This document shows, piece by piece, positions 2,689-49,477 of a DNA stretch of 64,000 nt. Source of the DNA: Patescibacteria group bacterium (GTDB lineage: Bacteria > Patescibacteriota > Minisyncoccia > UBA6257 > GWB1-50-10); assembly GCA_040757555.1 (NCBI GenBank), contig JBFLWN010000002.1, positions 83,116 through 147,115 on the forward strand. Reading direction: 5' to 3'. A model generated the notes under the pieces. It ran no database searches and was not told where the DNA came from. It saw only the letters and a list, made by a program, of their open reading frames with translations. The position numbers were made by a program, and so were the translations under genes. The stretch's first letter is position 1. The number at the start of each line of letters is the position of its first letter.

Positions 2689-3102
2689 ATGACACAAAAA
2701 GTATCTTTTCTGGAGAAGATAAAGATAATCCTAAAAGCAATTTCTTATCATCTTTTTCCTGAAAGTTATGAGAGCCTCAAACAATTTGCTGCAGAAGCAA
2801 GAAAGAGAGGTTTCACCGTAACAATCAGAGAGCTTTTCATTCCGAACACAAATTCTCAGAACTCCAATGATTTCTGTTCGTCTGTTTCGCAATGCGTCAC
2901 AGACGGAATGGTATATCTTCATTTGAAGGGTGTTGGAGATGGGAGAAAGCGAGATATCGTGTGTGATATTCCTGTCGGATATTGCAGTCTCCAATATGAC
3001 GACATGAAACGATTTCATGAGGAAAAAGAGAAAAAGATGAAAGAGATAATGGAAACATTAAAATCTTTCATTGTCCCGGTAAAAGTTCAGGAAATTTTCT
3101 AA
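2689..3102 (+). CDS. hypothetical protein (137 aa)
   Basis: ORF with ATG at 2689 preceded by AAGGGAG (2674-2680, spacing 8). The ORF-track start at 2680 is a GTG artefact. No recognisable motifs. Followed by a hairpin terminator. Confidence 0.5.
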   Translation: MTQKVSFLEKIKIILKAISYHLFPESYESLKQFAAEARKRGFTVTIRELFIPNTNSQNSNDFCSSVSQCVTDGMVYLHLKGVGDGRKRDIVCDIPVGYCSLQYDDMKRFHEEKEKKMKEIMETLKSFIVPVKVQEIF

Positions 3103-3134
3103 TTCAGGAGGTTTTTGTGGAAGTACAAGATTAA

Positions 3135-3172
3135 GGGACTCTACGCGCAATGCGAAGAGTCCCAATTTTTTT
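3135..3172 (+). terminator. Rho-independent terminator (GGGACTCT...AGAGTCCC + T-run)
   Basis: Inverted repeat gggactctacgcgcaatgcgaagagtccc followed by aattttttta. Confidence 0.5.
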
Positions 3173-3184
3173 ATCTAAAATATC

Positions 3185-4984
3185 CTATACCACCTCCGCT
3201 TGATAACATTGTTCACAATAGACTATTTCTTTCCTTTCGGGTGCATATGATGTCTCGAATTCATTGGGGCACCTTCCTGTTCCATGTTGATGTTGTGCAG
3301 TGTTTTGATATATTCCATTCTCTGATTTTTCACCAGTACACTGACAAGCGCGATGCCAGAGCTTCATCGGATTGCGTTTGTTAAAACGTTCAAAGTGACG
3401 TGTATTCGGACATTTCCGTGGAAGCGGAATATTCATCCTCCGATAGAATGCTAACTCCTCGGGAATAATGCGAAATGCTTTTGTGCAATTATGTTCGGCA
3501 GTAACATCCAGAGAACCACGCTTCTCCCACGTTTCACATGAAATTATTTCATTCAAAATATCATCACCAATTGAAGAGATGCGTTCAGGAAGATCTTGAT
3601 ATGACTTCGTTGCAACATGTTCTTTTTCCTGCGGATCTTCCCATACATATCCAACTTTTTGAGCTTCTTCTTTTGTCATAGGAAAATGATCATATGCCGC
3701 CGTTGTATTATATGCGGAAGTGGAAAGATCGGGTGGATAAAATTCTCCAAATTTATATTCCCTCCCCTGTTTGTCCTTATACGGCATCGCATTCATGTGC
3801 TCAATAATCTTCGGAACAAGCGCTTCATATTCTTCTTTTGTGTATTGTTTATTCAGAATGCAATATTCTTTACTTTTTAATCCAATGCATCCAAATAAAT
3901 TTGAAGAGGAATAACAATTATCTACATATGTTAAGTCGTGACATGAATCCCACGTCTCGTTCGCAAAACGAATATTCGAAACATTGTATCCGCAATTTGA
4001 TGTTTCATATACAAGCTCGGTGGCTCTCCCCCAATATGAATAATCCATACAATCTTTCGCTTCAAAAATAGAAAGGAGATATTTTCCATTTTCGACTTCT
4101 CTCGACTGGTACGAGTCTTTCACCCTATTACAATTATTTAACCAATTCCCGGAAACATCGGTACTGTTTATATTGGTTACCGACTGATGAATAGTACCAG
4201 CCACAAGTGCGGAAAAACGTTCGGAAAGTTTTTGTAATCCGGCAGCGGTATCAAGATCCAACTCTTTTATCTTTTTTTCATACTCTTCCTTCGTATATTG
4301 CTTATTTAAAATTGAATATTGCGCATTTCTAAGTCCTGCGCACGCAATGCAGTTGGTACAATTTCTGCAATCGAAAAGAAAATAAGAATCGCGACACTGC
4401 TTACACTCCTGACAATATTGAACATTGTAACAATCATTAATATCGATGGATTGATACGCAAGTTCGGATTTATCTGCATTAAAACAATCGGCGCAGTCAC
4501 GTGAATTCCAGAGGAGGTATGAATAGCGGGAATTTTCATTGTAATTTGCCCGAATAAGTAAATAACAATCCTTGTTGTAACTTGCCCGATTACAATATTC
4601 ACTTCCCACAATATCTCCCTGACGAATAAGAGAGGCGCGAGGTACCCGCATTTTCATTTCCTTAAATTGCTCAAAAAACGGTTTATCAAAATTATATTCC
4701 CTTCCGTATGAAATTGGATCCCATTTATCGCTTCGATAACATTCGAGACAATACAGAGGAAAAGATGTTCCGGGCGGATACATCGCAATCATATTTTTTC
4801 CGCATAAACTGCAGGTGTTTTTATACAAATGCCGTTCATTACAAAACGAAAGTCTCCGCTGAAATCGACAGGGAGGACACCAGGTCGGCGCGGGCACTTT
4901 TATTTTTTCATAAAAATCAAAGTCCTCCGGTGCAATGGTAAACGAGTTTTTGCAGTTTTGACACTGTTTTGCCTCCGAATTCAT
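3185..4984 (-). CDS. Cys-rich multi-zinc-ribbon protein, paralog 1 of 5 (599 aa), family not recognised
   Basis: Long intact ORF. N-terminus MNSEAKQCQNCKNSF...PTWCPPCRFQRR is a rubredoxin-like CxxC...WCPxC knuckle pair. Central CRNCTNCIAC...GLRNAQYSILNKQYTKEEYE module, with a second copy degenerate (SSNLFGCIGLKSKEYCILNKQYTKEEYE). C-terminal FYRRMNIPLPRKCP...CQC...CEQCYQAEVV. About 40 Cys. No signal peptide or TM. Confidence 0.8.
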   Translation of the reverse strand: MNSEAKQCQNCKNSFTIAPEDFDFYEKIKVPAPTWCPPCRFQRRLSFCNERHLYKNTCSLCGKNMIAMYPPGTSFPLYCLECYRSDKWDPISYGREYNFDKPFFEQFKEMKMRVPRASLIRQGDIVGSEYCNRASYNKDCYLLIRANYNENSRYSYLLWNSRDCADCFNADKSELAYQSIDINDCYNVQYCQECKQCRDSYFLFDCRNCTNCIACAGLRNAQYSILNKQYTKEEYEKKIKELDLDTAAGLQKLSERFSALVAGTIHQSVTNINSTDVSGNWLNNCNRVKDSYQSREVENGKYLLSIFEAKDCMDYSYWGRATELVYETSNCGYNVSNIRFANETWDSCHDLTYVDNCYSSSNLFGCIGLKSKEYCILNKQYTKEEYEALVPKIIEHMNAMPYKDKQGREYKFGEFYPPDLSTSAYNTTAAYDHFPMTKEEAQKVGYVWEDPQEKEHVATKSYQDLPERISSIGDDILNEIISCETWEKRGSLDVTAEHNCTKAFRIIPEELAFYRRMNIPLPRKCPNTRHFERFNKRNPMKLWHRACQCTGEKSENGIYQNTAQHQHGTGRCPNEFETSYAPERKEIVYCEQCYQAEVV

Positions 4985-4998
4985 ATACCTATATTACC

Positions 4999-6696
4999 CT
5001 AAATTATCTCTGCGTTGTAGCACGTCTCGCAGTAGATGATCTCTGGCCTCTCCGACGAATAAGAAGTCTCAAATTTATTTACACATTGTCCATTATGACC
5101 GTGAGATAATTCTTTGCACATACATTGTCGATGCCAAAGTTTTCGAGGTGGACGAAGTGATATGCGCTTTCGATAGCGACATTCTGGACAATTTCTGGGG
5201 ATCGGAATATTCATTCGCTTATAAAACTCGACTTCGGGATCAACCACATTATAATTTCGATCGCATGAAATACAGGTGAGCGCTTCTTTTGTTATTGAAT
5301 CTGATACATCGACAATAGTATCGGGAATTTGATCGGGGGAAAGAGTTCCCTTTCCACGGGTTACTCGAACGTCATCCTGCCATCGAAATCCCCGAGAAAT
5401 TGCAATCTCTTTCTCCATCGGCATATAGATATCTCCATGGGTCTCGTTATATCCGAAAGGAGATAATGCGGGAGGAAAAAATTCACCATATTCTCCTCTC
5501 TTTTTCATTTCTTCAACGAGCTCACTTTTTATGTGCTCATACTCCTCTTCCGAATATTGCGTATTTAAAATACAATATTCTCCTTTTCTCACACCAACAC
5601 ATCCAAAAAGATTTTGTGAATTATGGCATGAGTCACAATAATCTATAAACGTGTTCTCATATGAGAGATGACAAAACCTCACGTTCGATGCATTGGTAAG
5701 TGCATGCGATTCATAGGTAAGCTCGGTTGTCCCCAATCCAACACTCAAAAGGTCCATCGAATCCTTCGCAATAACGATTGCGCTATGACGAACATTCTCG
5801 CTGTCGTAGGCATAATAGCCATTATATATATTTCGGGAATTATGAATTTCATCCCCCACCACATTCTGTGATTTTTCTATCTGTGCATATTTGTGTATTC
5901 CTTTATGTTGAATAATATCAATCCATTTTTTATACAGTTCCGCGCGTTCTCGATATGATCCCAAATTAAATTCTTTCAATTTTTTGTCGTACTCCTCTTT
6001 CGTCAATTGTTCATTTAAAAAACAGTATTTTTTATTCCTTAAATTCCAGCTCAAGAAACAATTTTGACAATTAGTACAATCAAAACAATATTTACACTCA
6101 ATACTGTCATGCACAAAAAAACAAAATTCACACTTAAAATCCCTATCACAATGAAAACATTCATATAAAAACTCTCCCCCTTCGTATGCAAGATTTACAT
6201 CACAGGAGTCTTTTGTGCCATTCCAACAATTGCTCAAATAAAATCCATTTTCACAATTAAAACAGTCAAATGAAAGATATACATTTTTATTGTCCGCCGA
6301 ATGGTTGGTATATTCACTGTTTACAGAATTTTTTCCAAGAAGTGCAACCCGCGGAACCTTTAATTGTAATTCTTTAAATTGTTCAAAAAACGGGCGATTT
6401 ATATCTATCTTCATTGCAAAATCCATAGGACTCCACGTATCTCCCCACCAACACGTATGACAATACACCTTATATGGTGCGTCAGGATGATAAATCGTCA
6501 CTGTTGATTTTCCACACAAATCACAGTTCCTTCGATAGAGGTTACGTTCATTTCGCCATGCATAACGCCTCATCTGCCGACAATCAGGACACCACATTGG
6601 TAGTGGAACATTTATTTTCCCGTAAAATTCAAAATCTTCACTCTCGAGGGTGAAGTTGTGTTTGCAGTTTTGACATTGCTTTGTCTCAGCATTCAT
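4999..6696 (-). CDS. Cys-rich multi-zinc-ribbon protein, paralog 2 of 5 (565 aa)
   Basis: Tandem with paralog 1 (14-nt gap). Same architecture: MNAETKQCQNCKHNF...MWCPDCR; CKYCFDCTNCQNC...LRNKKYCFLNEQLTKEEYD; CDSCHNSQNLFGCVGVRKGEYCILNTQYSEEEYE; C-terminal NCPECRYRKR...CETCYNAEII. The start codon and 12 upstream nt are identical to paralog 1. Confidence 0.8.
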   Translation of the reverse strand: MNAETKQCQNCKHNFTLESEDFEFYGKINVPLPMWCPDCRQMRRYAWRNERNLYRRNCDLCGKSTVTIYHPDAPYKVYCHTCWWGDTWSPMDFAMKIDINRPFFEQFKELQLKVPRVALLGKNSVNSEYTNHSADNKNVYLSFDCFNCENGFYLSNCWNGTKDSCDVNLAYEGGEFLYECFHCDRDFKCEFCFFVHDSIECKYCFDCTNCQNCFLSWNLRNKKYCFLNEQLTKEEYDKKLKEFNLGSYRERAELYKKWIDIIQHKGIHKYAQIEKSQNVVGDEIHNSRNIYNGYYAYDSENVRHSAIVIAKDSMDLLSVGLGTTELTYESHALTNASNVRFCHLSYENTFIDYCDSCHNSQNLFGCVGVRKGEYCILNTQYSEEEYEHIKSELVEEMKKRGEYGEFFPPALSPFGYNETHGDIYMPMEKEIAISRGFRWQDDVRVTRGKGTLSPDQIPDTIVDVSDSITKEALTCISCDRNYNVVDPEVEFYKRMNIPIPRNCPECRYRKRISLRPPRKLWHRQCMCKELSHGHNGQCVNKFETSYSSERPEIIYCETCYNAEII

Positions 6697-6720: not shown

Positions 6721-7875
6721 CTAAACAGCGAGGCGTTTTTGTATTTTGTTCTTTTCCGGAAGTGGAATTTTTGTTTTCTCTACATACTTCTTCATCGTAT
6801 CAATCGTCACATCATATGTTTTCCTATCCACAGGATATGGTGTGGCGTCTTTTCCTCCATGTGCAAATGAATATCGTGCGGGATCTTCGTACGACGGTTT
6901 TGCGCCATAAATAACCTCCGAGACAAGTGCGAGGGCGCGAATTGTTTTTGGGCCCACCCCTTCAGTTGAAAGAAGTTTTTCATAACTCTCCGGCTGTTCA
7001 TCACATAACTTCCACAAAATTTTCTCGAGATATGCGCTTTTTGAAAAATCTTCCATCACCACCGGGTGTGTCTTGAATTCTTTATTTTCGAGCTCGAGGA
7101 GTGTTAATTGCTTCCCCTCCCCGTTTCCCAATGAAACCATTTTTGAAAGCGGAGAGTAATATCTTCGAAGAAGTTGAATATCTTTCATAAGCACTCCAAA
7201 ACTCTGATGAGTAAGATCGGCACTTATTTCCCGATTCTTTTCGCTTTCATTCGCGGTCATATTCAACACATTCGGAATTTTTATCTGGCTTGAAATTCCC
7301 GAATGCGGTTCGCGAATTAAATCTTTTGCCGTTTCCGAATGCCAATGATATCGTCGTGCAGTTTGGTTTTCTTTATTCATTCCCTGTTGCACCACCGTCC
7401 ACGCTCCATTCTTTGTAAAGAAAAATGTGTGGTGATAAATCTGAAATCCATCTTGAATAAGCGCACTATCCACCTTCGCGGCCATACGCGAATTATATGA
7501 AAGTGCGCGTATGTTTTTTTCACTGAGTGCCAATCGGGACCCCCATGTAAATATTTCGTCGGGTGTTTTTCGAGATGTCTTTCCTTTTCCTCCACAAATA
7601 AAAATTCCGAGGTTACGTTCCTCCCCTCGGATTGCCTCCTTGAGTGCGGCGGTGAGTATTGTCGTAAGCCCCGAAGCGTTCCAATCAAAGGCCAAAACCG
7701 TCCCCAGGGACTGGAACCACACCGGATCCCCAATACGCCGTATAAAGGCATCTGGACCCTCTTCTGCGACGATTACGTGCATCATCTCCCGCCCCAGCAT
7801 CACCATGCGGTCAAAAAGCCACTTTGGGCACTTCCCATAATCAAGTGTAAATGTGGCAATCCCGCGCTGGATCAT
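6721..7875 (-). CDS. DUF763-family protein (384 aa), function unknown
   Basis: N-terminus MIQRGIATFTLDYGKCPKWLFDRMV resembles the conserved N-terminus of DUF763 proteins as I recall them (not a search). Immediately upstream and co-oriented with Cys-rich paralogs 2 and 1 (24-nt gap). Confidence 0.5.
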   Translation of the reverse strand: MIQRGIATFTLDYGKCPKWLFDRMVMLGREMMHVIVAEEGPDAFIRRIGDPVWFQSLGTVLAFDWNASGLTTILTAALKEAIRGEERNLGIFICGGKGKTSRKTPDEIFTWGSRLALSEKNIRALSYNSRMAAKVDSALIQDGFQIYHHTFFFTKNGAWTVVQQGMNKENQTARRYHWHSETAKDLIREPHSGISSQIKIPNVLNMTANESEKNREISADLTHQSFGVLMKDIQLLRRYYSPLSKMVSLGNGEGKQLTLLELENKEFKTHPVVMEDFSKSAYLEKILWKLCDEQPESYEKLLSTEGVGPKTIRALALVSEVIYGAKPSYEDPARYSFAHGGKDATPYPVDRKTYDVTIDTMKKYVEKTKIPLPEKNKIQKRLAV

Positions 7876-8160: not shown

Positions 8161-8180
8161 AAGAATACATTAGTTTAGGG

Positions 8181-9371
8181 TTAATAGTTGCACACATCAC
8201 ACATCCCACAGTTTTTATCAGGATATGCTTCGCCAAAATATGCGAGCAACATTTTTCTGCGGCAATCCCCCGACGTGCAAAATTCAACCATCTTATCCAG
8301 TTGATACTGCGCAACTGCCGCACGATGTTCATTCTTGCTTTGCCGAATGAAAAATTCATGCTTCATCTTATCTCCATATCCAAAAAACAACATACAATCG
8401 GACGGCAATCCGTCTCTTCCTGCGCGTCCTGTTTCCTGATAATACCCCTCAAGATTTTTTGGAATATCGTAATGAATAACAAAACGTACGTTCGGTTTAT
8501 CAATCCCCATTCCAAATGCAATGGTCGCAACGATAATTCGCAATTTCCCTTTCTGAAATTTCTCCTGATTTTCCGTGCGTTCTTTTTGCGGAAGTCCTGC
8601 ATGATAGGGCGCCGCTTCAATTCCATCCATCATTAAATCACTTGCCATACGTTCAACCGATTTTCTGCTGTGACAATAAATAATTCCTGAATAATCGGGA
8701 TGATCTTCCAAATACGCCTGAATATAATAATATGCATTATCTTTCGGACGGATAATATAATTAAGATTCTCTCTATTAAAACTCGCACGGTGTTCACCAT
8801 ACATTCCTTCTTTGAATTTTAACTGTAGTTTAATATCATCTCTCACCTTCCGTGTCGCAGTCGCAGTAAGTGCAACAATAGGCACTCCGGGAAACTTTTC
8901 ACGAAGCATGCCGAGCTTTCGATACTCGGGACGAAAGTCATGTCCCCATTCGGAAATACAATGCGCCTCATCAATTGCAATCAGAGAAATCCCGCAATCG
9001 AGAAGAAAATCTATGAATCCCTCTTTCACCAAACGTTCCGGCGCAACATACAACAATTTCACCCTTCCACTCAATACCTCATCTTTTATCTGTCTTGTCT
9101 CTTTTACCCCAAGACTACTGTTTAAATATGCCGCGGAAATATTTTTCCCCTCAAGTGAATTTACTTGATCCTTCATAAGTGAAATAAGCGGGGATACCAC
9201 AAGCGTCACCCCCGGAAATTCAAGCGCGGGAAGTTGATAACAGAGTGATTTCCCCGCACCGGTCGGAAGCACCGCAATCACATCTTTTTTCTGAAGAATA
9301 TCGGCGATAATATCCTCCTGATATGGAAGAAATGAATGGAACCCAAAGTGTTGTTTTAATAATCGTTTCAT
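8181..9371 (-). CDS. recQ: RecQ-family ATP-dependent DNA helicase, minimal form (396 aa)
   Basis: LPYQEDIIADILQKKDVIAVLPTGAGKSLCYQLPA, DEAH box (AIDEAHCISEWGHDFRPEY), and a C-terminal zinc-binding CxxxxC...CGMCDVC. Lacks HRDC and most of RQC. Confidence 0.85.
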   Translation of the reverse strand: MKRLLKQHFGFHSFLPYQEDIIADILQKKDVIAVLPTGAGKSLCYQLPALEFPGVTLVVSPLISLMKDQVNSLEGKNISAAYLNSSLGVKETRQIKDEVLSGRVKLLYVAPERLVKEGFIDFLLDCGISLIAIDEAHCISEWGHDFRPEYRKLGMLREKFPGVPIVALTATATRKVRDDIKLQLKFKEGMYGEHRASFNRENLNYIIRPKDNAYYYIQAYLEDHPDYSGIIYCHSRKSVERMASDLMMDGIEAAPYHAGLPQKERTENQEKFQKGKLRIIVATIAFGMGIDKPNVRFVIHYDIPKNLEGYYQETGRAGRDGLPSDCMLFFGYGDKMKHEFFIRQSKNEHRAAVAQYQLDKMVEFCTSGDCRRKMLLAYFGEAYPDKNCGMCDVCNY

Positions 9372-9373
9372 GT

Positions 9374-10372
9374 TTATAGGTAACTGTATTTTTTTAATAC
9401 ATCTTCCACTTCATCCGCGCTTCTTGTATTCATAAGTTTTGTTCGCAATTCTTTTGCATTATCAAAACCGGAAACATATGCTTTAAAATGCTTTTTCATA
9501 TTATCAAAGTTTTTGAGTGATGTAGAGCGATTGATGTTTGAATTTCCAAAATATTTCTCGAAAAGACGCGCATGTTCAAGCATCGCCGATAATCGTTTTC
9601 TCAAAATAATCTCTCTCTTATTTTTTGCAAAGAAAAATGGATTTCCGAATATTCCCCTTCCCACCATTATTCCCTCAACTCCCGATTCTTTTGCCTTTTC
9701 CAATCCATCTTCCATGCTCAAAACATCTCCGTTTCCGACGATAAAAGGTCTTTCTTTCTCATCAGAAAAATATCCATCACGTAAAGAAACCGCATCGGCG
9801 ATTCTATCCCAACACGCAGAAACTTTCGACATTTCCTTTCGTGTTCTTCCATGCACGGTGATAACTGCGGGCTCCATTTCAAAAATATACGGGAGCCAAT
9901 CTTCCATCGTATCTTTGTTATATCCAAGACGCGTTTTTACCGATACCGGCAATTTTCCCGCACCGCGTTTTGTTTCTTTGATAATTTCCTGTGCAAGCCT
10001 CGGATTTTTCATAAGTGCCGCACCCGCACCCTGTTTTTCCACTGCACGATCAGGACATCCCATATTGATATCAATACCGTCAAATCCAAGTTCCCCAGCG
10101 AGTAATGCACATTCATAAAAATGTTTTGGTGTCGCGCCAAAAAATTGTGCCACAATCGGTTTCTGTTTTTTTGTATATTTCAGATCAATGAGTAGTTTCT
10201 CTTTTCCGCGTGAACACAATCCATCACACGAAACAAACTCAGTCCAAAAAACATCCGGTTTTCCGTATTTTGTGATAATTTCACGAAATGCAATATCAGT
10301 CACATCCGCCATTGGTGCAATCGCAAAAAATGGCTTTTTTGATTTTTTCCAAAATCCAAATTCCATAAGCAC
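9374..10372 (-). CDS. dus: tRNA-dihydrouridine synthase
   Basis: FAIAPMADVTDIAFREI...GFDGIDINMGCPDRAV...GAGAALMKNP, a Dus family TIM-barrel signature. Confidence 0.85.
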   Translation of the reverse strand: MLMEFGFWKKSKKPFFAIAPMADVTDIAFREIITKYGKPDVFWTEFVSCDGLCSRGKEKLLIDLKYTKKQKPIVAQFFGATPKHFYECALLAGELGFDGIDINMGCPDRAVEKQGAGAALMKNPRLAQEIIKETKRGAGKLPVSVKTRLGYNKDTMEDWLPYIFEMEPAVITVHGRTRKEMSKVSACWDRIADAVSLRDGYFSDEKERPFIVGNGDVLSMEDGLEKAKESGVEGIMVGRGIFGNPFFFAKNKREIILRKRLSAMLEHARLFEKYFGNSNINRSTSLKNFDNMKKHFKAYVSGFDNAKELRTKLMNTRSADEVEDVLKKYSYL

Positions 10373-10482
10373 TCTCTATTTTATAGAGAATAATAACAAT
10401 AACAAGTAGAAATTGACACTTTATTAAATTAATGCTAGAATACAACCAGCAAATTAACTAACTTTCTATAAGGAGATGCACA

Positions 10483-11118
10483 ATGAAAAAGGGATTTTTA
10501 ATTCTTTTGGGAATTATTTTATTTATTCTTTTGTTCTGCTCACAAACACCCGGACAACAATGCAATGGAGCAAGTTGGAGTTTCCAAATGTCCCATTTCG
10601 ACAAAATGAACCATGATGGCATGGATTATAAAAAGGGTTATACATTATATTCTCATGCACGACAACGCTTTGGTAATGTTGGAGTACTACTGATGTTCAA
10701 TTCAATTTCTGATTCTTCATGGGCAGTAGGTGCCGGACTTTCTTATTACTCGAAAACAACAACAACTGATATCGCTGCCGGTCCAAAGTATTCAATAAAA
10801 AACGGGGAAGAAGGAAGGGTTGTTTTTTGGGTTAAGGTACGAGAATATATCGCATTAACAAAAAACATCGAAATAAGAACATTCCTAGATTTTGCTGAAG
10901 TGATAAGTGCTGATGGATATATTTTATATTACTTTGATGAAAATCAAGTATGGGCACTGGGAATAACCGGGCAAACAAAATTTGGAGTTGGTGTTATCGG
11001 TCAATTATCACTAACAAATAACTTCGATATTTCAGCACGATTAATGACCGCTGGAGAAAGAGATAAAAAAGACCGCATCATACCTACTGGAGAAATAATA
11101 TTCAGAGCTACATTTTAA
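10483..11118 (+). CDS. hypothetical secreted protein (signal peptide), 211 aa
   Basis: AGGAG RBS 7 nt upstream of ATG. N-terminus MKKGFLILLGIILFILLFCSQ is a signal peptide. No known motifs. Confidence 0.55.
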   Translation: MKKGFLILLGIILFILLFCSQTPGQQCNGASWSFQMSHFDKMNHDGMDYKKGYTLYSHARQRFGNVGVLLMFNSISDSSWAVGAGLSYYSKTTTTDIAAGPKYSIKNGEEGRVVFWVKVREYIALTKNIEIRTFLDFAEVISADGYILYYFDENQVWALGITGQTKFGVGVIGQLSLTNNFDISARLMTAGERDKKDRIIPTGEIIFRATF

Positions 11119-13919: not shown

Positions 13920-13931
13920 GAGGAATTTTTG

Positions 13932-14002
13932 TGCGGGATACGGGAATCGAACCCGTGTCTCAACCTTGGGAAGGTCGCATTCTACCACTGAACCAATCCC
14001 GC
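13932..14002 (-). tRNA. tRNA-Gly (anticodon CCC)
   Basis: Minus-sense GCGGGATTGGTTCAGTGGTAGAATGCGACCTTCCCAAGGTTGAGACACGGGTTCGATTCCCGTATCCCGCA. Acceptor GCGGGAT/ATCCCGC, anticodon loop TTCCCAA, T-loop TTCGATT. Confidence 0.85.
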
Positions 14003-19486: not shown

Positions 19487-19557
19487 CGGGCTGTAGTATA
19501 CCGGTAGTACGCATGCATGGGGTGCATGTAGACCGGGTTCAATTCCCGGCAGCCCGA
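19487..19557 (+). tRNA. tRNA-Pro (anticodon GGG)
   Basis: CGGGCTGTAGTATACCGGTAGTACGCATGCATGGGGTGCATGTAGACCGGGTTCAATTCCCGGCAGCCCGA. Acceptor CGGGCTG/CAGCCCG, anticodon stem CATGC/GCATG, loop ATGGGGT, T-arm CCGGG-TTCAATT-CCCGG. Confidence 0.85.
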
Positions 19558-19600
19558 CATAATTATAAAATCTCGCTTTATGCGGGGTTTTATAATTTAT

Positions 19601-21877: not shown

Positions 21878-22579
21878 TTATTTCATATTCTCTAACAAAT
21901 CTAAATCCCCATCCAATACCTCTTCTACGCGAGAAATTTTAATCCCCGTCGCATGATTTTTGACTTGTTTATAGGGATGCAACACATATGATCGAATTTC
22001 ATGTCCCCACTCTGGTTTTACCTTCACTTTCAGATTCTCTATGGCGGTTTCGTGTTTTTCTTGCATAAGTGCAATAAGTTTAATCTTCAAAAGTTCCATT
22101 GCCTTATCCCTATTCGCGCTTTGTGAGCGCTCCGATTGCGAAGAAATCACAATTCCAGTCGGTAAATGACTCACCCGCACGGCAGTTTCCACTTTATTTA
22201 CATTTTGCCCACCGGGCCCCGATGAACGGAAAAAATCGGTTTTTATATCTTTCTCGGGAATCTGGATTTTTGAAACTTCCACCTGTGGCAAAATCGGCAA
22301 CACTTCAACAAGTGCAAATGAGGTGTGTCTCAGTTTTTTTGAATCGAACGGAGAAATACGTACCAAACGATGCACCCCCGATTCCCCTTTCAAATATTCA
22401 TACACCCCATCACCCCTCAGAGAAATTGTGATATCATTCACGAATTGTTTTTTCCATCCTTTTTTATCCGCGCATTTTTCATACATCCGAAGAAGCATCT
22501 GTGCCCAATCTTTTGCATCATCTCCCCCTGCCCCCGCGAGCACCGAAAGATACACGCCGTTATAATTTGTTGAATTCAT
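21878..22579 (-). CDS. prfB: peptide chain release factor 2 lacking N-terminal domain 1 (233 aa)
   Basis: SPF tripeptide (RISPFDSKK) and GGQ (SSGPGGQNVNKV). Begins at the residues that follow the frameshift site in canonical RF2 (YLSVLAGAGGDDAKDW). An in-frame stop lies 2 codons upstream and only 30 nt separate it from the upstream gene. Confidence 0.8.
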   Translation of the reverse strand: MNSTNYNGVYLSVLAGAGGDDAKDWAQMLLRMYEKCADKKGWKKQFVNDITISLRGDGVYEYLKGESGVHRLVRISPFDSKKLRHTSFALVEVLPILPQVEVSKIQIPEKDIKTDFFRSSGPGGQNVNKVETAVRVSHLPTGIVISSQSERSQSANRDKAMELLKIKLIALMQEKHETAIENLKVKVKPEWGHEIRSYVLHPYKQVKNHATGIKISRVEEVLDGDLDLLENMK

Positions 22580-22608: not shown

Positions 22609-24387
22609 TTAAACCACTTCCGCCTGATAACAACTCTCACAATAGACAATCTCTGTTCTATCGGGAGAATAATTTGTTTCAAACCCATTTGGACAAGAAT
22701 CCTTTCCGTGAATATGTGTAGAAGTATTTTGGTATATTCCATTTTCTGATTTCTCACCTCCACACTGACACTTTCGATACCAATGTTTTATCGTATTACG
22801 ACGTTTTAATCTAGTATAATGCCGACAATTGGGACAAAGCCGCGGAAGCGGAATATTCATAAGTTTATAAAATTCAAGTTCTGACCGAATAATTCTAAAT
22901 GCTGTTGTACAATTATCTTTACATTTTCCTTCATGAGCGCACCCAATAACCTCGTCAAGGATACCGTCACCCGCATCTTTCGCATATGCAGGAAGTTCAC
23001 TTGGTTTTCTTGTAATAGAGTAATTCTTTGTATCAACTATGTGCCAATTAAATCCATTTTCCATTGCCTCTTCCATTGTGAATGGTAAATGTTCTTGATC
23101 CGGAGTCTCATTATATCCAAGGGGTGAAAACTCTGCGGGAAAAAATTCTCCATACTTGTAACTCCTTCCTATTTTATCCTTATAAGGTACCCCACTCATC
23201 TGCTGAACCAATTTTTCAACGAGTACCCCATATTCTTCTTTTGAATATTGTTTGTTGAGAATACAGTATTGTTTATTCCGAAGACCAAAACATCCAAAAC
23301 AATCCGAGGTGGAGATGCAGCTCCCACAATATTGAAGATTTTTTACATTCGTCCAACATTGAAAGCAAAATTTAATATTATATGCACCATCACCGATTTG
23401 ACTACTTTCATACACCAATTCATTACCGATAAAAGTGGAAAGATCATAACAATCTTTATTGGGGCCCGCCTGAAGATACTGACAATACTTAATATCTTCG
23501 CCATCTCTTATTAAAAATGAATTTTTTACATTTTTTGATTGATTAATATAATCCCCCGTAACATCTACATTTTTTGTTCCCTCCATAAATTTTACCGGAA
23601 AATTAAGCCAAAAATTTATTGCCTTCATTTTATATTCCTCAAACAGATCATAGGAACCAGAGAAAATTTTTTTTATTTCTTCTCCATATTCTTCTTTTGA
23701 ATATTGTTCGTTAAAAATACAATAACTTTTGTTTCGCATATTTACACACCCAAAACAATCAGAACATCCCCTTAAATTCTTCGAAAAATAAATATCAAAA
23801 CAGTCTTCACAATTTTCTGAATACACCGCCCTATTGCACCGCGTAAGCCAGAATCCTTCATAACAGAGTTCACTGTGAGAAATATGGGAGTTGTCGAAAC
23901 AACTCTTCGAATAGTCGATGCCGTTTGAATATGCAGAATCTTCCGAATAATTCCCGTTAAAACAAAGATAGCAATTTTTAAAGCCGGTACACTGATTCGA
24001 ATAATCACTTGCTACCGGGTTTATTACGCTTTTTGCGCGCCAAGGAACATCATGCCAAAGTTCAAGAATTTGTTGTAAAAAAGGTTTTGTGAAATCAATA
24101 TTTCTTCCATAATCCATTGGATCCCATTTATCAGAATTCCATATATCGAGTTCATACACCTTTATAGGTGCATCCGGAGCACATTGAGAAAAAATCATTT
24201 CCCCAGAAAAATCGCTTTTTCGCTTGTACAGAAAATGCTCATTACGAAATGCAAATCGTCGTTGAAAACGACATATCGGACACCACGTTGGTGGAGGCAC
24301 ATCTATTTTTTTGTAGAAATCAAAATCTTCACTCTCAATAGTGAAGTTATTATGGCAATTCTGACACGTTTTTACCTCCGAACTCAT
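22609..24387 (-). CDS. Cys-rich multi-zinc-ribbon protein, paralog 3 of 5 (about 592 aa)
   Basis: MSSEVKTCQNCHNNFTIESEDFDFYKKIDVPPPTWCPICRFQRR. Central CSDCFGCVNMRNKSYCIFNEQYSKEEY and CGSCISTSDCFGCFGLRNKQYCILNKQYSKEEY. C-terminal LCPNCRHY...CESCYQAEVV. The second and third N-terminal CxxC pairs are lost (SDFSGE, ELDIW). The start was trimmed from the track's 24495 because that extension reads through a tRNA-Thr 3'-end copy. Confidence 0.75.
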   Translation of the reverse strand: MSSEVKTCQNCHNNFTIESEDFDFYKKIDVPPPTWCPICRFQRRFAFRNEHFLYKRKSDFSGEMIFSQCAPDAPIKVYELDIWNSDKWDPMDYGRNIDFTKPFLQQILELWHDVPWRAKSVINPVASDYSNQCTGFKNCYLCFNGNYSEDSAYSNGIDYSKSCFDNSHISHSELCYEGFWLTRCNRAVYSENCEDCFDIYFSKNLRGCSDCFGCVNMRNKSYCIFNEQYSKEEYGEEIKKIFSGSYDLFEEYKMKAINFWLNFPVKFMEGTKNVDVTGDYINQSKNVKNSFLIRDGEDIKYCQYLQAGPNKDCYDLSTFIGNELVYESSQIGDGAYNIKFCFQCWTNVKNLQYCGSCISTSDCFGCFGLRNKQYCILNKQYSKEEYGVLVEKLVQQMSGVPYKDKIGRSYKYGEFFPAEFSPLGYNETPDQEHLPFTMEEAMENGFNWHIVDTKNYSITRKPSELPAYAKDAGDGILDEVIGCAHEGKCKDNCTTAFRIIRSELEFYKLMNIPLPRLCPNCRHYTRLKRRNTIKHWYRKCQCGGEKSENGIYQNTSTHIHGKDSCPNGFETNYSPDRTEIVYCESCYQAEVV

Positions 24388-24600: not shown

Positions 24601-24607
24601 ATTATTG

Positions 24608-24680
24608 AGCCAATGGTCGGATTTGAACCGACGACCCACGCTTTACGAAAGCGTTGCTCTACCAACTGAGCTACATTGGC
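24608..24680 (-). tRNA. tRNA-Thr (anticodon CGT)
   Basis: GCCAATGTAGCTCAGTTGGTAGAGCAACGCTTTCGTAAAGCGTGGGTCGTCGGTTCAAATCCGACCATTGGCT. Anticodon stem ACGCT/AGCGT, loop TTCGTAA. Confidence 0.85.
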
Positions 24681-36380: not shown

Positions 36381-37148
36381 TTATCGAGTACTTATGAATA
36401 CTTTCGTACGCGAGACGTCAATTTCATCGGTAATAAACTTATTTCCCGGAAATGAGATGACAAAGGGTTTTTCCTCAAGTCCACTCAAATTAGATAGTAC
36501 TGTTTGTCCGGGAAAAACCTCCATATCATATTGGTCATATAATATCGCGGTAATCCTCACCTCCGAAGCAATGATAGAACTCTGATTTTTTAGACTTCCC
36601 GATACACGCACTCCCTGATCTGTCTTTTTTGTCTCCAATCCCGATGATAACACCACATCAGAGCGAAGTGTTTCATATGCCTTTTTCCACGATACATCCG
36701 AAATGAGTAATTCGATTTTATTAATATCTTTTACAGAAGAAGAAATTCTTGGTTCAAATATAATTTTTTTCTCAAGTGCAAAAATTGCATCATTCCCTGA
36801 TATTCTTTCTATCTCGCGATTTCTTATATCATAAACGACAAATGTATACGAAAATTTATCTGAAGAAAAAAACTGATTTGAATTTAATATTTCTGCAAGT
36901 AAAATAACCTTCCCATTATCAAGCGAAAATATACGAACATCTCCCATGTGTTTTAATGGGACAAGCTCAGTAATTTCGCATTTGGTACACCCTCCCCCAC
37001 AGTCAATTCCGGTTTCGTTTTGATTTTGGATGCCATCGGAACATGTTGGCGTACCTATAATTAATCCACCGAATAACCAATAAAAAACCAATCCAAATAT
37101 ACAAAGGTAAAACATTCCATATGCAAACTTTTTTACTCCGCGTGTCAT
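36381..37148 (-). CDS. hypothetical membrane-anchored protein (255 aa)
   Basis: N-terminal TM (FYLCIFGLVFYWLFGGLIIG), a Cys-cluster (CSDG...CGGGCTKC), then an extracytoplasmic domain. Sits between ftsW and Cys-rich paralog 4. Confidence 0.45.
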   Translation of the reverse strand: MTRGVKKFAYGMFYLCIFGLVFYWLFGGLIIGTPTCSDGIQNQNETGIDCGGGCTKCEITELVPLKHMGDVRIFSLDNGKVILLAEILNSNQFFSSDKFSYTFVVYDIRNREIERISGNDAIFALEKKIIFEPRISSSVKDINKIELLISDVSWKKAYETLRSDVVLSSGLETKKTDQGVRVSGSLKNQSSIIASEVRITAILYDQYDMEVFPGQTVLSNLSGLEEKPFVISFPGNKFITDEIDVSRTKVFISTR

Positions 37149-37307: not shown

Positions 37308-39125
37308 TTATAAAAATTCCGATTTGTAACAATCATGACAATATATAATTTCTTCTTGTTCGGGAGAAAATGTTGTTTCAAATTCGTTGGGACACGATTT
37401 ATCCCCATGAAAATGCTCTGTGGTATTTGTATAGGGTAATAGTTTTTGGTCTTTTATCTTCGGTTGATTACACTGACACCTTCTCCTATAAAGATGAAAC
37501 CCGTTTCGCCATGAAAGTATCTCAGCTGTTCTGCAACTGGGACAAAGACGAGGGAGTGCGATATTCATTTCCCGATGAAATGCCAACTCTTCTTTGGTAA
37601 TACGAAATGCCTTTGTACATCCATCAAGACACGCGTTGTGCTCGGTCTGCCACACATTTGTAGAATGTTCACATTCAATAATTTCATCCAAAATTGAATC
37701 AGGAACATCATTTATATGATCCGGGATATCGCCATACTTCAATGAAATTTTATAATTTCGTTCCGCTTCGTCCCGCCACTGCCATCCCTCCTCGAGGATT
37801 TCCTCTTTGGTTCTTGGATACCAAGGGAATGCTGCAGACTCGTTGTATGCATATGCGGAAAATTCTGGTGGAAAAAACTCTCCGAATTTATATATTCTTC
37901 CTTTTTTATCGATATACGGCATATCGTCCATATGTACTCGTATCACTTTGGACAATGTTTCGTATTCTTCTTTTGTATACTGTCGGTTCAATATACAGTA
38001 TTTTTTATTCTGAATTGATACACACCCGATTGAATGAGACGAATTTCTTGCCCAATCACAATACATTGTGTCAATAGAATTATTTCCTCCCGCTGAAAAG
38101 AAACATCGCTCAACATTCCTTGTCATCGCATAAATTTCATAAAGAAGTTGAGAATTTATCCCCCCTCCACCCACATCATAACTGTCTTTCAAACCCAACC
38201 CTCCAAAGTAAATATATTTACAATTTTCCACGTTATCGAGTGCGGAGAAACATGTTTTGCAATTTTTTGTATCGCGGATAATATCGCCCGTAACATTTTG
38301 ACTATTCAATACGTGGGCATATCGTCGTGGGAGAGAAAGATAAAATGCCCTAAATTTTGTTTTTGCCTCTTGAAGTTTTTTATAACTTCCCAAATCCCAA
38401 TATTTTAATTTCGAGAAATATTCCTCTTTCGAAAATTTTTCGTTAAATATACAATATTTTTGTTTTCTTAAATTCACACATCCAAAACAATCGGAACACC
38501 CGACACAATCAAAAAGAAACAGAGAATCGAGACATTCATCCGAGAAATATCCAAACTGTGTCCGATAGAGACGATTTGAGTGAAGCGAGAAATACACGTG
38601 ATCCGAATTATCGACAACATAAGAATCATACGTATCCTTTGAAAATAAAAGTCCATAATCAAACTGGGAATTCTCCGAAAAATAACTCCAAAATACATAG
38701 TAGCAATTTTTAAGACTCTGGCCCGCGTGTGAATATTCACTTTCAATAAGATTTGTACCGGTAAATGCCGGTCGCGGAACCGCTTCAAGAAGTTTCCGAT
38801 ATTGTACAAAAAATGGCTGCGAAAAATCATATTCCCGACCGTAATCCATAGGATCCCATTTATCGGAAAACCAGCATTCACGACAATACACGGTAAAAGA
38901 CGTTCCTGGGGCGTGAATAGTGATGATCTGTTTTCCGCACAGTCCGCACACGTTTTTATAGAGCGTCCGCTCTTCTCTCCACATCATTCGTCTTAAGTTT
39001 CGACACTCCGGACACCATGTCGGCGCCGGTACATCAATTTTTTTGTAGAAATCAAAATCCTCCGGTTCAATAATAAATTCCGTCTTGCAGTTTTGGCAGA
39101 TCCTATTTTCTTGTTGGTTTTCCAT
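37308..39125 (-). CDS. Cys-rich multi-zinc-ribbon protein, paralog 4 of 5 (605 aa)
   Basis: MENQQENRICQNCKTEF...PTWCPECRNLRR...CGLCGK...CRECW. CVGCSDCFGCVNLRKQKYCIFNEKFSKEEY, with the second module degenerate (SSHSIGCVSIQNKKYCILNRQYTKEEYE). C-terminal LCPSCRT...CHDCYKSEFL. Confidence 0.8.
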   Translation of the reverse strand: MENQQENRICQNCKTEFIIEPEDFDFYKKIDVPAPTWCPECRNLRRMMWREERTLYKNVCGLCGKQIITIHAPGTSFTVYCRECWFSDKWDPMDYGREYDFSQPFFVQYRKLLEAVPRPAFTGTNLIESEYSHAGQSLKNCYYVFWSYFSENSQFDYGLLFSKDTYDSYVVDNSDHVYFSLHSNRLYRTQFGYFSDECLDSLFLFDCVGCSDCFGCVNLRKQKYCIFNEKFSKEEYFSKLKYWDLGSYKKLQEAKTKFRAFYLSLPRRYAHVLNSQNVTGDIIRDTKNCKTCFSALDNVENCKYIYFGGLGLKDSYDVGGGGINSQLLYEIYAMTRNVERCFFSAGGNNSIDTMYCDWARNSSHSIGCVSIQNKKYCILNRQYTKEEYETLSKVIRVHMDDMPYIDKKGRIYKFGEFFPPEFSAYAYNESAAFPWYPRTKEEILEEGWQWRDEAERNYKISLKYGDIPDHINDVPDSILDEIIECEHSTNVWQTEHNACLDGCTKAFRITKEELAFHREMNIALPRLCPSCRTAEILSWRNGFHLYRRRCQCNQPKIKDQKLLPYTNTTEHFHGDKSCPNEFETTFSPEQEEIIYCHDCYKSEFL

Positions 39126-39149: not shown

Positions 39150-40931
39150 TTATACTATTTCCGCTTGATAGCATTGTTCGCAATAGACAATCTCTTTTCG
39201 GTCAGGAGAATAACTCGTTTCGAATTCATTTTGACACGCCCCTTCGTGTTGATGCTTCCCGGTATTTGTGTATATTCCATTTTCACTTTTTATACCCGCA
39301 CATTGGCACGTTCGCTTCCAAAGTTTTAGAGGATTTCGTTGTTTTAGTCGAGCGTAATGACGACAATTTGGACAGAGATTTGGAAGTGGAATTCCATTTT
39401 TCTTATAAAGCTGAAATTCTTGAGGAATAATTTTAAATGCAATCGTGCATTGGTCGTTACAATTTCCTCCATGGGCGCACGCGATAATATCATTAGTTAT
39501 TGAGTCTGAAATATTATTTATATCATCCGGAATATTTTCCGATTTTATGGTTACTTTATAATCTCTCTCTTCTCTATCTCTCCAGGTATATCCCTTTTTT
39601 ATCGTCTCTTCTTTGGTGAGGGGAAAATATTCCTGCACCGCTGCTTCATTATAAGCAAATGGGGAAAATTCTATGGGAAAAAATTCTCCATATTTATATT
39701 CCCTTCCCGCCGAATCTTTATATGGATGTTCATTCATCTGAGCAATAATTTCCCCTACTTTATGCTCATAATCTTCCTTCGTGTACTGTTTGTTTAAAAT
39801 ACAATATTGCTTATTGCGAAGTCCTATACATCCAAAACAATTCGAACAATTTCTCAAAAAATAACAGTAACGAATTGAATAGCTATCCCATACATTTCCC
39901 GAAAACGCAGCGTCATGCATATTGCTCCCCGCGTCCATAACATCATAGCTCTTTTCCATATTCACCCCAACCGCATATGCATCATAAAGATCTCTCATGT
40001 CGGTAACCCCATATATTACAAAACGCGAATCTTCCAATGGCCCCTCTATATCGAAACAATCCTTGCTATTTTTTACCTCTTTCAAATAATCGCCTGTGGC
40101 ATTAACAATGTGACGTGAGTTGGAAAACTTTTTTGGATATTTGAGAACAAGAGAAGAAAATTTTTCTTTGAAATTTTCATTTCCCGTCTTTGTGTTTAAA
40201 TGAAGTGTATTTACCTCATTTTTATATTCTTCTTCGGATAATTTTCTATTTAAAATACAATACTTACTGTTGCGCAAACCGACACAACCAATGCAATATT
40301 GGCAATTTCGACAGTCATAACAATATTTCGAATCAATACAAGTATCGGAAAGAATAAGATGGTCGCTGTTATAACACCCTTCAGAATCGATAAGTTCATA
40401 ACATCCCTCATTCTTACTCGATCCAATCATGTCGGATGAATTTTTGTTTTTGATTGAATGATAAAGGTAAGACGAATCTTCATTCATATCACTCGCAAAA
40501 TTCAAATAACAGTTTTTTGATTGATAGGTGAAATTGCAATAATCACTTTCAACCCCATCAATATTAATGAGTGCGGGAGTAGGCACCTTATAAAGAAGTT
40601 CCTTCCATTGTTCGAGAAATGGACGCGATGGATCATATACCGACCCAAATTCCATCGGATCCCACTTATCACTCCACCAATATGTGTGGTCATATACTTT
40701 TGCTGGTGATTCTGGCGAATACATAGAAATAAGCATCTCCTCGTGACCAGGGGCATCACATTTTCTTTTATAGAGATTACGTTCGTTTCTGAAACTAAGC
40801 CGACGCTGTAATCTACACTCCGGACAAAACGTCGGGGCGGGAACATCCATTTTTTTGTAGAAATCAAAATCCTCACTCTCAATCGTGAACTGATTTTTGC
40901 AATTCTGACATTGTTTAGTTTCTGAATTCAT
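39150..40931 (-). CDS. Cys-rich multi-zinc-ribbon protein, paralog 5 of 5 (593 aa)
   Basis: MNSETKQCQNCKNQF...PTFCPECRLQRR. The second and third N-terminal CxxC pairs are lost (CDAPGH, DHTYW). CRNCQYCIGCVGLRNSKYCILNRKLSEEEY and NCSNCFGCIGLRNKQYCILNKQYTKEDYE. C-terminal LCPNCRHYARLKQRN...CEQCYQAEIV. Confidence 0.8.
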   Translation of the reverse strand: MNSETKQCQNCKNQFTIESEDFDFYKKMDVPAPTFCPECRLQRRLSFRNERNLYKRKCDAPGHEEMLISMYSPESPAKVYDHTYWWSDKWDPMEFGSVYDPSRPFLEQWKELLYKVPTPALINIDGVESDYCNFTYQSKNCYLNFASDMNEDSSYLYHSIKNKNSSDMIGSSKNEGCYELIDSEGCYNSDHLILSDTCIDSKYCYDCRNCQYCIGCVGLRNSKYCILNRKLSEEEYKNEVNTLHLNTKTGNENFKEKFSSLVLKYPKKFSNSRHIVNATGDYLKEVKNSKDCFDIEGPLEDSRFVIYGVTDMRDLYDAYAVGVNMEKSYDVMDAGSNMHDAAFSGNVWDSYSIRYCYFLRNCSNCFGCIGLRNKQYCILNKQYTKEDYEHKVGEIIAQMNEHPYKDSAGREYKYGEFFPIEFSPFAYNEAAVQEYFPLTKEETIKKGYTWRDREERDYKVTIKSENIPDDINNISDSITNDIIACAHGGNCNDQCTIAFKIIPQEFQLYKKNGIPLPNLCPNCRHYARLKQRNPLKLWKRTCQCAGIKSENGIYTNTGKHQHEGACQNEFETSYSPDRKEIVYCEQCYQAEIV

Positions 40932-49361: not shown

Positions 49362-49432
49362 TTAGTTTATTGGGGGATCGTCTAACGGTAGGACACCGCC
49401 CTTTGGAGGCGGGTATCGGGGTTCGAATCCCT
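49362..49432 (+). tRNA. tRNA-Gln (anticodon TTG)
   Basis: TGGGGGATCGTCTAACGGTAGGACACCGCCCTTTGGAGGCGGGTATCGGGGTTCGAATCCCTGTCCCCCAG. Anticodon stem CCGCC/GGCGG, loop CTTTGGA; close to canonical bacterial tRNA-Gln. Confidence 0.8.
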
Positions 49433-49477
49433 GTCCCCCAGCAAATATAAATTAGGCACATCTTTATGGTGTGCTTA

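Follow-up and report, generated by a model that had tools for sequence, protein, structure and literature searches.

The stretch analyzed here (hereafter the window) is 64 kb of DNA from a Patescibacteria group bacterium, and positions 39150-40931 of its minus strand form one ATG-initiated open reading frame (ORF) for a protein of 593 amino acids (aa). The public collection includes an identical protein under the name 'hypothetical protein AB1333_01655 [Patescibacteria group bacterium]'. The 593-aa protein belongs to a large family that is restricted to Patescibacteria, the ultra-small bacteria of the candidate phyla radiation (CPR), and it is predicted to carry zinc-finger modules at each end and two tandemly duplicated solenoids between them. 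Treble-clef fingers and beta-solenoids are known types of element; here they occur in an architecture, and with a coil geometry, for which no described relative was found. Genes of the family often lie beside orphan VirD4-like coupling ATPases, and with moderate confidence we read the protein as a cytoplasmic, non-enzymatic-looking finger/double-solenoid protein that serves as an adaptor or cargo for a VirD4/TrwB-like ATPase.

Two sets of internal repeats define this architecture. The initial annotation of the gene, which proposed repeat detection as a check, held that the N- and C-terminal segments are homologous and that the central modules (here M1 and M2) are direct repeats; the four peptides that it quoted are found at residues 21-58, 505-544, 206-237, and 361-389 of the translation. 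Both relationships are borne out, with significant internal similarity by pairwise, shuffled-score, and profile-profile comparison. At the termini, residues ~10-59 pair with residues ~494-543 (hhalign profile-profile probability 99.1%, E 5.9e-19, 50 columns), residues 1-70 are 42% identical to residues 481-593 over 57 aa (E 7e-15, in a small search space), and the Smith-Waterman z score is 18.8, with none of 2000 composition-preserving shuffles scoring as high. In the center, residues ~136-243 pair with residues ~284-395 (hhalign of M1 against M2: probability 99.9%, E 4.4e-33, 107 columns; 34% identity over 98 aa, E 4e-18; Smith-Waterman z = 18.3). The terminal repeat is detected in all five family members of the window (z 15-24), and the central repeat has z 14-18 in the three of them in which a motif search located both caps, these three being the ones scored. 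The central repeat unit is a domain of ~110 residues, of which the motif quoted earlier is only the C-terminal tip. The two copies of a CxxCxxCxxC module that had been described are indeed homologous, but in the 593-aa protein the second copy has three Cys, L359 being followed by C362, C365, and C368.

The domains follow one another in the order finger pair, linker, M1, helices, M2, helix, domain X, and finger pair (Zn-M1-M2-X-Zn). An ancient duplication of a [Zn-ribbon + Cys-cluster module], as first suggested, does not account for this order, which is mirrored and not tandem. One tandem duplication of a finger and a module gives Zn-M-Zn-M; therefore two separate events would be needed, a tandem duplication of the solenoid and an independent copying of the finger pair to the opposite end. 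The AlphaFold2 model used here, built from 140 diverse sequences (predicted local distance difference test [pLDDT] 94, predicted template modeling score [pTM] 0.92), has its secondary-structure elements in the same order at both termini, and the order of its domains is mirrored. This model superseded an earlier AlphaFold2 model from 60 close homologs, in which the solenoids had pLDDT 53-70, no strands, and no PDB matches. The terminal homology runs weakly on into the second finger of each pair (YxPxxxxxVY[C/D]xx[C/Y]; profile-profile probability 54%), and this second finger is a mobile module in its own right, also present alone in neighboring ATPases.

Conservation figures come from 140 diverse homologs with 34-52% identity to the 593-aa protein. 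The N-terminal treble-clef zinc finger is predicted at residues 1-57 (40761..40931, on the minus strand like all domains of this gene), with ligands C8, C11, C36, and C39 ahead of an Arg-rich helix. All four positions are Cys in 132 of the 140 homologs, and the terminal CxxC/CPxC pairs, already taken for zinc knuckles in the initial annotation, are almost certainly metal (Zn) sites. Strands at residues 4-7 and 14-17 and a helix at residues 37-46, which begins at the second Cys pair, form the N-terminal finger of the model. With two short strands flanking the first Cys pair and a helix beginning at the second, the fold is read as a treble clef and not as a rubredoxin-type double knuckle; the C-terminal copy is laid out alike in the model, with one CxxC pair in a hairpin knuckle and the other at a helix N-terminus. 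The proposed likeness to rubredoxin sites was accordingly abandoned: a rubredoxin-type Fe(Cys)4 site has both CxxC knuckles on beta-hairpin loops and comes with a family match, whereas the second pair here starts a helix in the model and no rubredoxin match was found in Pfam or NCBIfam at E<=1. The helix after the N-terminal finger carries R40, R43, R44, R48, R51, K55, and R56, with Lys/Arg conservation of 70-96%.

The C-terminal treble-clef finger (residues 482-541; 39309..39488) is homologous to residues 1-57 and would take its ligands from C485/C491, C495, C520, and C523. C485 is conserved in 100% of the homologs, and C495, C520, and C523 in 81-84%. The Arg-rich helix that follows contains R524, R528, R532, and R540, with R524 conserved in 100% and Lys or Arg at position 528 in 96%. 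In one of the other window paralogs, paralog A, Thr replaces the second Cys of the CPxC pair in the C-terminal ribbon (KCPNTRH); its C-terminal finger is therefore left with three Cys and a nearby His, which may be a swap of ligands, His for Cys.

Each treble clef is followed by a second finger or by what is left of one. The C-terminal second finger (residues 542-593; 39153..39308) resembles zf_Tbcl_2, and its C542, C566, C584, and C587 are 97-99% conserved; the CxxC-x~17-CxxC pattern of zf_Tbcl_2 is found at these four residues and also, in paralogs A, B, and D, in the second finger at the N-terminal end. A subfamily-specific set of accessory ligands, C544, H560, and H562, goes with H487/C491: the three are jointly present in 91 of the 140 homologs and otherwise jointly deleted, and they occur together with H487 and C491 in 45 of 48 cases. 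At the N-terminal end, residues 58-90 (40662..40760) appear to be a degenerate remnant of a second finger that is CxxC-x19-CxxC in other members and here reads C58, P61, D81, and Y84. All four of these positions are Cys in 69 of 140 homologs and are otherwise lost as a set; among the window paralogs, CCCC is kept in A, B, and D, replaced by C-P-D-Y in the 593-aa protein, and by S-S-E-I in paralog C. Ligand sets that are kept or lost together behave as real metal sites do, and the finger sites are therefore read as such; the terminal fingers of the 593-aa protein would hold ~3-4 Zn per chain.

Family libraries register these fingers by sub-threshold signals only, from zf_Tbcl (PF13451), zf_Tbcl_2 (PF23477), and TIGR04272. 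For zf_Tbcl, paralog D scores 18.5 bits against the Pfam gathering threshold of 24, the 593-aa protein has no zf_Tbcl match at E<=1, and ten of 60 family members match at E<=0.01 (best 3.5e-4). For PF23477, residues 565-590 of the 593-aa protein score 15 bits and paralog D scores 21.3 bits, below the cutoff of 27 bits; TIGR04272 scores are 14.8-18.6 bits against a curated cutoff of 36 bits. Among viral models searched with Foldseek, the terminal domain superposes on those of phage 'putative zinc-ribbon domain' proteins with a root-mean-square deviation (rmsd) of 0.6-0.7 A over ~40 columns.

The model shows the central modules as two tandemly duplicated, very narrow beta-solenoids in which every third residue (Cys, Ser, Asn, Leu, or Val) forms a ladder, and from the size and conservation of these residues we infer that they line the solenoid core. 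M1 (residues 131-231; 40239..40541) has ~7 coils of 12 residues and ends in the CxxCxxCxxC turn (C207-C216) and a cap, GLRNxxYCILN. Written as seven rows of 12 from residue 138, its coil consensus is [S/N/C]-x-[N/D]-[C/S]-[Y/F/L]-x-[C/S/L]-[F/Y]-x-[S/V/C]-x-x. M2 (residues 266-383; 39783..40136) is a diverged copy of M1 with 13-residue coils that ends in L359-C362-C365-C368 and the cap GLRNKQYCILN. These periods are seen in column-profile autocorrelation, with maxima at lags 12, 24, and 36 for M1 and 13, 26, and 39 for M2, and over residues 131-220 of the 140 sequences Cys-Cys spacings are ~3x as frequent as expected at lags divisible by 3 and <0.13x elsewhere. DSSP assigns 'E--E--E--' (a beta-bridge at each third residue) to residues ~139-226 of M1, at pLDDT 95-98; the pattern in M2 (residues 272-378) is similar but less regular, with pLDDT 73-82 at residues 290-360. 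Foldseek searches of the PDB gave weak matches only (E 5e-4 to 1e-2, template modeling [TM] score ~0.1); all were to beta-helix proteins and so support the solenoid class, without a close structural relative. PDB sequence searches with the full protein and with the M1 profile returned nothing significant. A weak PDB sequence match to CutA was put down to noise, and a collagen- or polyproline II-like triplet repeat was rejected, the third residue being Cys, Ser, Asn, or Leu and not Gly, and the model having beta-bridges.

The Cys runs of the solenoids behave differently from the finger ligands. C207, C210, C213, and C216 are four consecutive ladder positions in the single turn that closes M1, and they belong to a strict every-third-residue ladder ~90 residues long that Cys shares with Ser, Asn, and Leu. 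In the 140 homologs this last turn is CCCC in 80 (57%), CCCS in 17, and LCCC in 15, with other single swaps in addition; at the M2 counterpart (positions 359, 362, 365, and 368) CSLC is commonest (39/140) and CCCC is found in 13/140 (9%). Earlier ladder positions are 30-77% Cys and otherwise Ser, Val, or Leu. Because solenoid Cys are replaced singly by Ser, Leu, or Val whereas finger ligands change in concert, packing is favored over an obligate Zn or Fe-S site, and the solenoid Cys more likely act mainly as small core-packing residues. Both this one-at-a-time replacement and the membership of the ladder argue against the earlier suggestion that CxxCxxCxxC ligates Zn or an Fe-S cluster. Ferredoxin-type [4Fe-4S] sites have an invariant CxxCxxCxxxC(P); the spacing here is CxxCxxCxxC and the set is incomplete across homologs.

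The family is large. A word-indexed protein search gave at least 7,853 matches, and an exhaustive profile search of 50%-identity cluster representatives gave 5,266 at E<=1e-3 (2,246 of them at E<=1e-30), with lengths mostly of 550-600 aa. With one genome scanned per species, the family turned up at no fewer than 590 loci, of which 80 were kept and used for the locus analyses. The 80 loci bear the labels Nomura-, Staskawicz-, Lipton-, Giovannoni-, Jorgensen-, Niyogi-, and Sungiibacteria, Paceibacterota, Minisyncoccia, and generic Saccharibacteria labels; a few short contigs among the loci are binned outside Patescibacteria-type labels. In 50 of the 80 loci there are 2-7 copies within ~14 kb, in arrays that are wholly co-directional with the sole exception of locus L038. 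No Pfam or NCBIfam model of the family exists, scans of its members with Pfam, NCBIfam, PADLOC, and PHROGs gave sub-threshold zinc-finger matches or none, and literature searches found no description of it. Viral contigs yielded one partial match in 2.9 million, versus the at least 590 loci on genome contigs; on these grounds, and given the housekeeping neighbors of the window copies, an origin from phages or mobile elements was rejected.

The window itself holds the 593-aa gene and four further paralogs (A, B, C, and D), all on the minus strand and 37-47% identical to one another in pairwise comparison. Each is 50-79% identical to proteins of other genomes, and since their closer relatives lie in other genomes and not in their own, the window paralogs are old. 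Identity between paralogs is 52-57% in the finger modules, against 29-32% in the solenoids, which are mildly acidic; the C-terminal module is basic. Hydropathy over 19 residues reaches at most 0.63, with no hydrophobic segment and no signal peptide, so the protein is neither Sec-secreted nor membrane-bound. No catalytic-looking set of invariant residues is visible in the 140 homologs.

When the ORFs of the 80 loci were clustered, the sole often-recurring cluster outside the family comprised 46 ORFs in 31 loci. They are FtsK/HerA-type ATPases matching TrwB_AAD_bind (PF10412), T4SS-DNA_transf (PF02534), TraG-D_C (PF12696), and DUF87, together with separate or fused N-terminal membrane modules of those ATPases. 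An ATPase gene and a family gene lie within 800 bp of each other in 39 pairs, of which 23 have a gap of at most 107 bp and 37 are co-directional. A CxxC-x17-CxxC finger is present in 14 of the 46 ORFs of the cluster; one tested example matches zf_Tbcl_2 at E 3.5e-15, and the finger shares 39-45% identity with its second-finger counterpart in paralogs A, B, and D. ATPases adjoin the arrays, for example, at 2828-4321 and 8172-10586 of locus L018, 2506-5904 of L055, and 1207-3579 of L001. In some the C-terminal zf_Tbcl_2 finger is followed by a long low-complexity tail, others are split into a membrane-module gene and an ATPase gene, and one array-linked ATPase matches phrog_5156 (unknown function) at 2.7e-60. 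Across 2,918 Patescibacteria genomes, a 2025 survey counted 5,713 VirD4-like coupling proteins, of which just 148 lay near virB4; its authors did not rule out exaptation of these ATPases and noted that the Patescibacteria type IV secretion system (T4SS) seems to be specialised for a purpose other than conjugation (PMC12102498). The text of that survey contains 'zinc' zero times and 'cysteine' only in the context of VirB1, and the family is therefore apparently not described there.

The reading of the protein as a scaffold follows from termini that are more conserved than the solenoids, from the lack of a catalytic-looking invariant set, and from the age of the paralogs. The choice of partner follows from the ATPases resembling type IV coupling proteins (T4CPs) in 31 of 80 loci, the 39 close pairs (37 co-directional), and the second finger held in common. 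In the mechanism proposed, the conserved basic finger modules would dock onto a common partner, and the diverged, mildly acidic solenoid surfaces would give each old paralog its own specificity. The likeliest partner would be the orphan VirD4/TrwB-like coupling ATPase beside the arrays, with nucleic acid as an alternative or additional partner, and members of the family would act as adaptors or cargo for this VirD4-like translocase. A non-enzymatic function of this kind is suggested by the combined sequence and locus evidence.

Several points weigh against this proposal. The 64-kb window, with its five family genes, has no T4CP-like ATPase; linkage is therefore frequent, not obligatory. Folded proteins stabilised by zinc would not be easy for a secretion ATPase to handle. 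The ladder is taken to face inward from the size and conservation of its residues, its Cys-Cys distances being likewise presumptive, and a more specific chemistry may be present in some members: the last M1 turn is CCCC in 57% of them, with C210 and C213 90-95% conserved, and a Zn site or disulfides in that turn are possible in CCCC members. Position 225 alternates between Cys, His, and Tyr, which could hint at a ligand.

The same linkage could mean that the proteins are secreted effectors or cargo, passed by the VirD4-like ATPase to the Patescibacteria T4SS and on into host cells, with the diversity of the paralogs reflecting host interaction. This is unlikely, although it would fit the tight co-directional linkage to T4CP-like ATPases, the absence of a Sec signal, the multi-copy tandem arrays with variable central surfaces, and a T4SS seemingly specialised beyond conjugation (PMC12102498). 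Its difficulties are that the paralogs are old and conserved across genomes and not rapidly diversifying, that most T4CP genes are distant from virB4 (PMC12102498), that several zinc sites would need unfolding for transport, and that the window copies sit among housekeeping genes with no ATPase nearby.

The housekeeping setting would suit a different function, in which the family binds nucleic acid on its own and independently of any ATPase (for instance as a chaperone of RNA or DNA, as a nucleoid protein, or as a DNA mimic), the Arg-rich fingers gripping and the acidic solenoids spacing or mimicking. In its favor are the 70-100% conservation of the Arg/Lys-rich helices that follow the two ribbons, the likeness of the terminal domain to phage zinc-ribbon and HNH-associated fingers, and the acidity of the solenoids; DNA mimicry is known from other beta-solenoids, among them the pentapeptide proteins. 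We nevertheless consider this function distinctly unlikely, since no recognised nucleic-acid-binding family matches, since five or more old paralogs per small genome are unusual for a general nucleoid or chaperone protein, and since the ATPase linkage in 39% of loci is left unexplained.

A bolder, composite proposal combines fold and partner. The solenoids would be an undescribed cytoplasmic beta-helix fold with 12-13-residue coils and a continuous core ladder of reduced thiols, which could hold soft metal ions (Zn, Cu(I), or Fe) or be a redox-switchable zipper, and the family, maintained as 5-7 old paralogs in each ~1-Mb genome, would supply the thousands of orphan VirD4-like ATPases with the substrate-recruiting partner or cargo that they lack; taken together, this is improbable. 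Least supported of the rivals, and very improbable, is an Fe or Fe-S redox protein of rubredoxin or ferredoxin type derived by duplication of a [Zn-ribbon + cluster] unit: it would make sense of the high Cys content (32 in the 593-aa protein; family median 37), of the M1 run of four Cys at two-residue spacing with its well-conserved C210/C213, and of a host lineage that is presumably anaerobic, but the four-Cys turn is whole in only 80/140 homologs in M1, with single Ser/Leu swaps, and in 13/140 in M2, its Cys belong to the 90-residue ladder shared with Ser, Asn, and Leu, their spacing differs from CxxCxxCxxxC, the domains stand in mirrored and not tandem order, and no Fer4, rubredoxin, or radical-SAM match was found in Pfam or NCBIfam at E<=1.

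The remaining domains of the 593-aa protein connect the fingers and the solenoids. A helical linker (residues 91-130; 40542..40661) has the conserved sequence WDPxxYG...PFFxQxxEL...VP and model helices at 92-95 and 105-115; D88, W90, F105, and P117 are invariant or nearly so. Joining helices between M1 and M2 (residues 232-265; 40137..40238) lie at 233-243 and 248-264 in the model, and the helix after the M2 cap (TKEDYEHKVGEIIAQM, residues 384-401; 39729..39782; model helix 385-401) is the counterpart of helix 233-243, with which it is aligned in the profile-profile alignment. Domain X (residues 402-481; 39489..39728) is unique, conserved, and acidic (PYxDxxGRxYKYGEFFPxExSPFAYNE...FPLTKEE...GYxWxD). 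Its G415, F417, P419, S423, Y427, N428, G447, and W450 are nearly invariant and its net charge is -6; profile-profile comparison found no internal repeat in it and no similarity to other blocks of the protein.

The four other paralogs are likewise on the minus strand. Paralog D (37308-39125; 605 aa, 41% identical to the 593-aa protein) lies directly downstream of the 593-aa gene across a gap of 24 bp. Paralogs A (3185-4984; 599 aa, 45% identical) and B (4999-6696; 565 aa, 38% identical) are in tandem. Paralog C (22609-24387; 47% identical) has 592 aa when counted from the ATG at M37; its mechanical ORF reaches 24495, where a GTG lies 36 codons upstream of that ATG (MSSEVKTCQNC). The true start is probably at 24387, this ATG being the one that aligns with the starts of all the other paralogs.

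Neighboring genes in the window are of housekeeping type: triosephosphate isomerase, an MraY-type glycosyltransferase family 4 protein, D-Ala-D-Ala carboxypeptidase, ScpA/ScpB, FtsW/RodA, YceG, RpoB/RpoC, an EF-G-like protein, a RecQ-type helicase (8181-9371), and Dus. A DUF763 protein (PF05559, E 6e-124) is encoded at 6721-7875 on the minus strand, immediately upstream of the tandem paralogs B and A. Next to paralog C, a release-factor-like ORF of 233 aa (21878-22579, minus strand) matches only the last part of PCRF (profile positions 98-194) and RF-1; its start is 30 bp past the paralog C stop, too close to accommodate a normal N-terminal domain, and the ORF could encode a short factor of PrfH type or be a prfB that is truncated or frameshifted. 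Downstream of paralog D, an ORF of 255 aa (36381-37148, minus strand) has an N-terminal hydrophobic segment and a CSDGIQNQNETGIDCGGGC motif, with no Pfam match. There are four tRNA genes, Gly-CCC (13931-14002), Pro-GGG (19487-19558), Thr-CGT (24607-24680), and Gln-TTG (49371-49442), and apart from these no Rfam family reaches its gathering score in the window. Near the arrays of other genomes, CutA1 (7 loci), DnaJ (11 loci), and DnaK (9 loci) recur (e.g., L012 3862-4203, L039 511-1641, and L011 3760-5667), which may be lineage synteny rather than functional linkage.

Patescibacteria genomes are tiny, yet ~9 kb of the 64-kb window is spent on five copies of this gene, and in related genomes the arrays reach up to seven. 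New here are a domain map for a large family without a solved relative, two double zinc fingers with two Cys/Ser-ladder solenoids, and a frequent genomic partner, the orphan VirD4-like coupling ATPase, whose role was left open by the 2025 survey (PMC12102498). The domain map and the ATPase partner together make a major part of CPR 'dark matter' accessible to concrete tests. If the family does prove to be a partner or cargo of these ATPases, their unexplained expansion in Patescibacteria would be tied to a concrete protein family. The predicted 12-residue solenoid would be a rare fold outside insect antifreeze proteins.

Each element can be set beside a known system. Like zf_Tbcl (PF13451), a 'probable treble clef domain' of small bacterial and phage zinc-ribbon proteins with the motif CxxCxxxFxIxxxExxFYxxxxxxxPxxCxxCR, the family finger has one CxxC pair in a beta-hairpin and another that starts a basic helix; unlike zf_Tbcl, it is present at either end of a ~590-aa protein, in two copies that are each paired with a second finger. 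That second finger, in the C-terminal tail and in the N-terminal region of A, B, and D, is like zf_Tbcl_2 (PF23477) and TIGR04272 (CxxC-x17-CxxC), but its scores are sub-threshold and its N-terminal copy is lost in the 593-aa protein and in about half of the family. The solenoids invite comparison with the antifreeze protein of Tenebrio molitor (TmAFP), whose 12-residue coil (TCTxSxxCxxAx) has a small Cys, Ser, or Ala at each third position in a narrow core and which is, to our knowledge, the sole well-known 12-residue beta-helix. M1 resembles TmAFP-type proteins (PF02420) in its 12-residue coil and in having a bridge and a small residue, probably inward-facing, at each third position, and among PDB sequences TmAFP (PDB 1EZG) ranks third against the M1 profile, with an E of 2.3 that is not significant; the likeness is one of analogy, not homology. 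Unlike TmAFP, the family is bacterial and cytoplasmic, has no Pfam AFP or Foldseek match, no TCT ice-binding face, and no signal peptide, and its M2 coils have 13 residues. A regular i/i+6 disulfide pairing in the manner of TmAFP was considered and rejected, Cys occupancy across the family coil being unpaired. The left-handed beta-helix (hexapeptide-repeat) proteins, such as GlmU, LpxD, and gamma-carbonic anhydrase, are the sole PDB folds retrieved by Foldseek; they have 18-residue coils ([LIV]-G-x4), whereas those of the family have 12-13, with TM ~0.1, rmsd 9-20 A, and no Pfam Hexapep match. Finally, the orphan VirD4-like coupling proteins of Patescibacteria are a separate protein family of FtsK/HerA-type ATPases, but they have the second zinc finger in common with the family described here.

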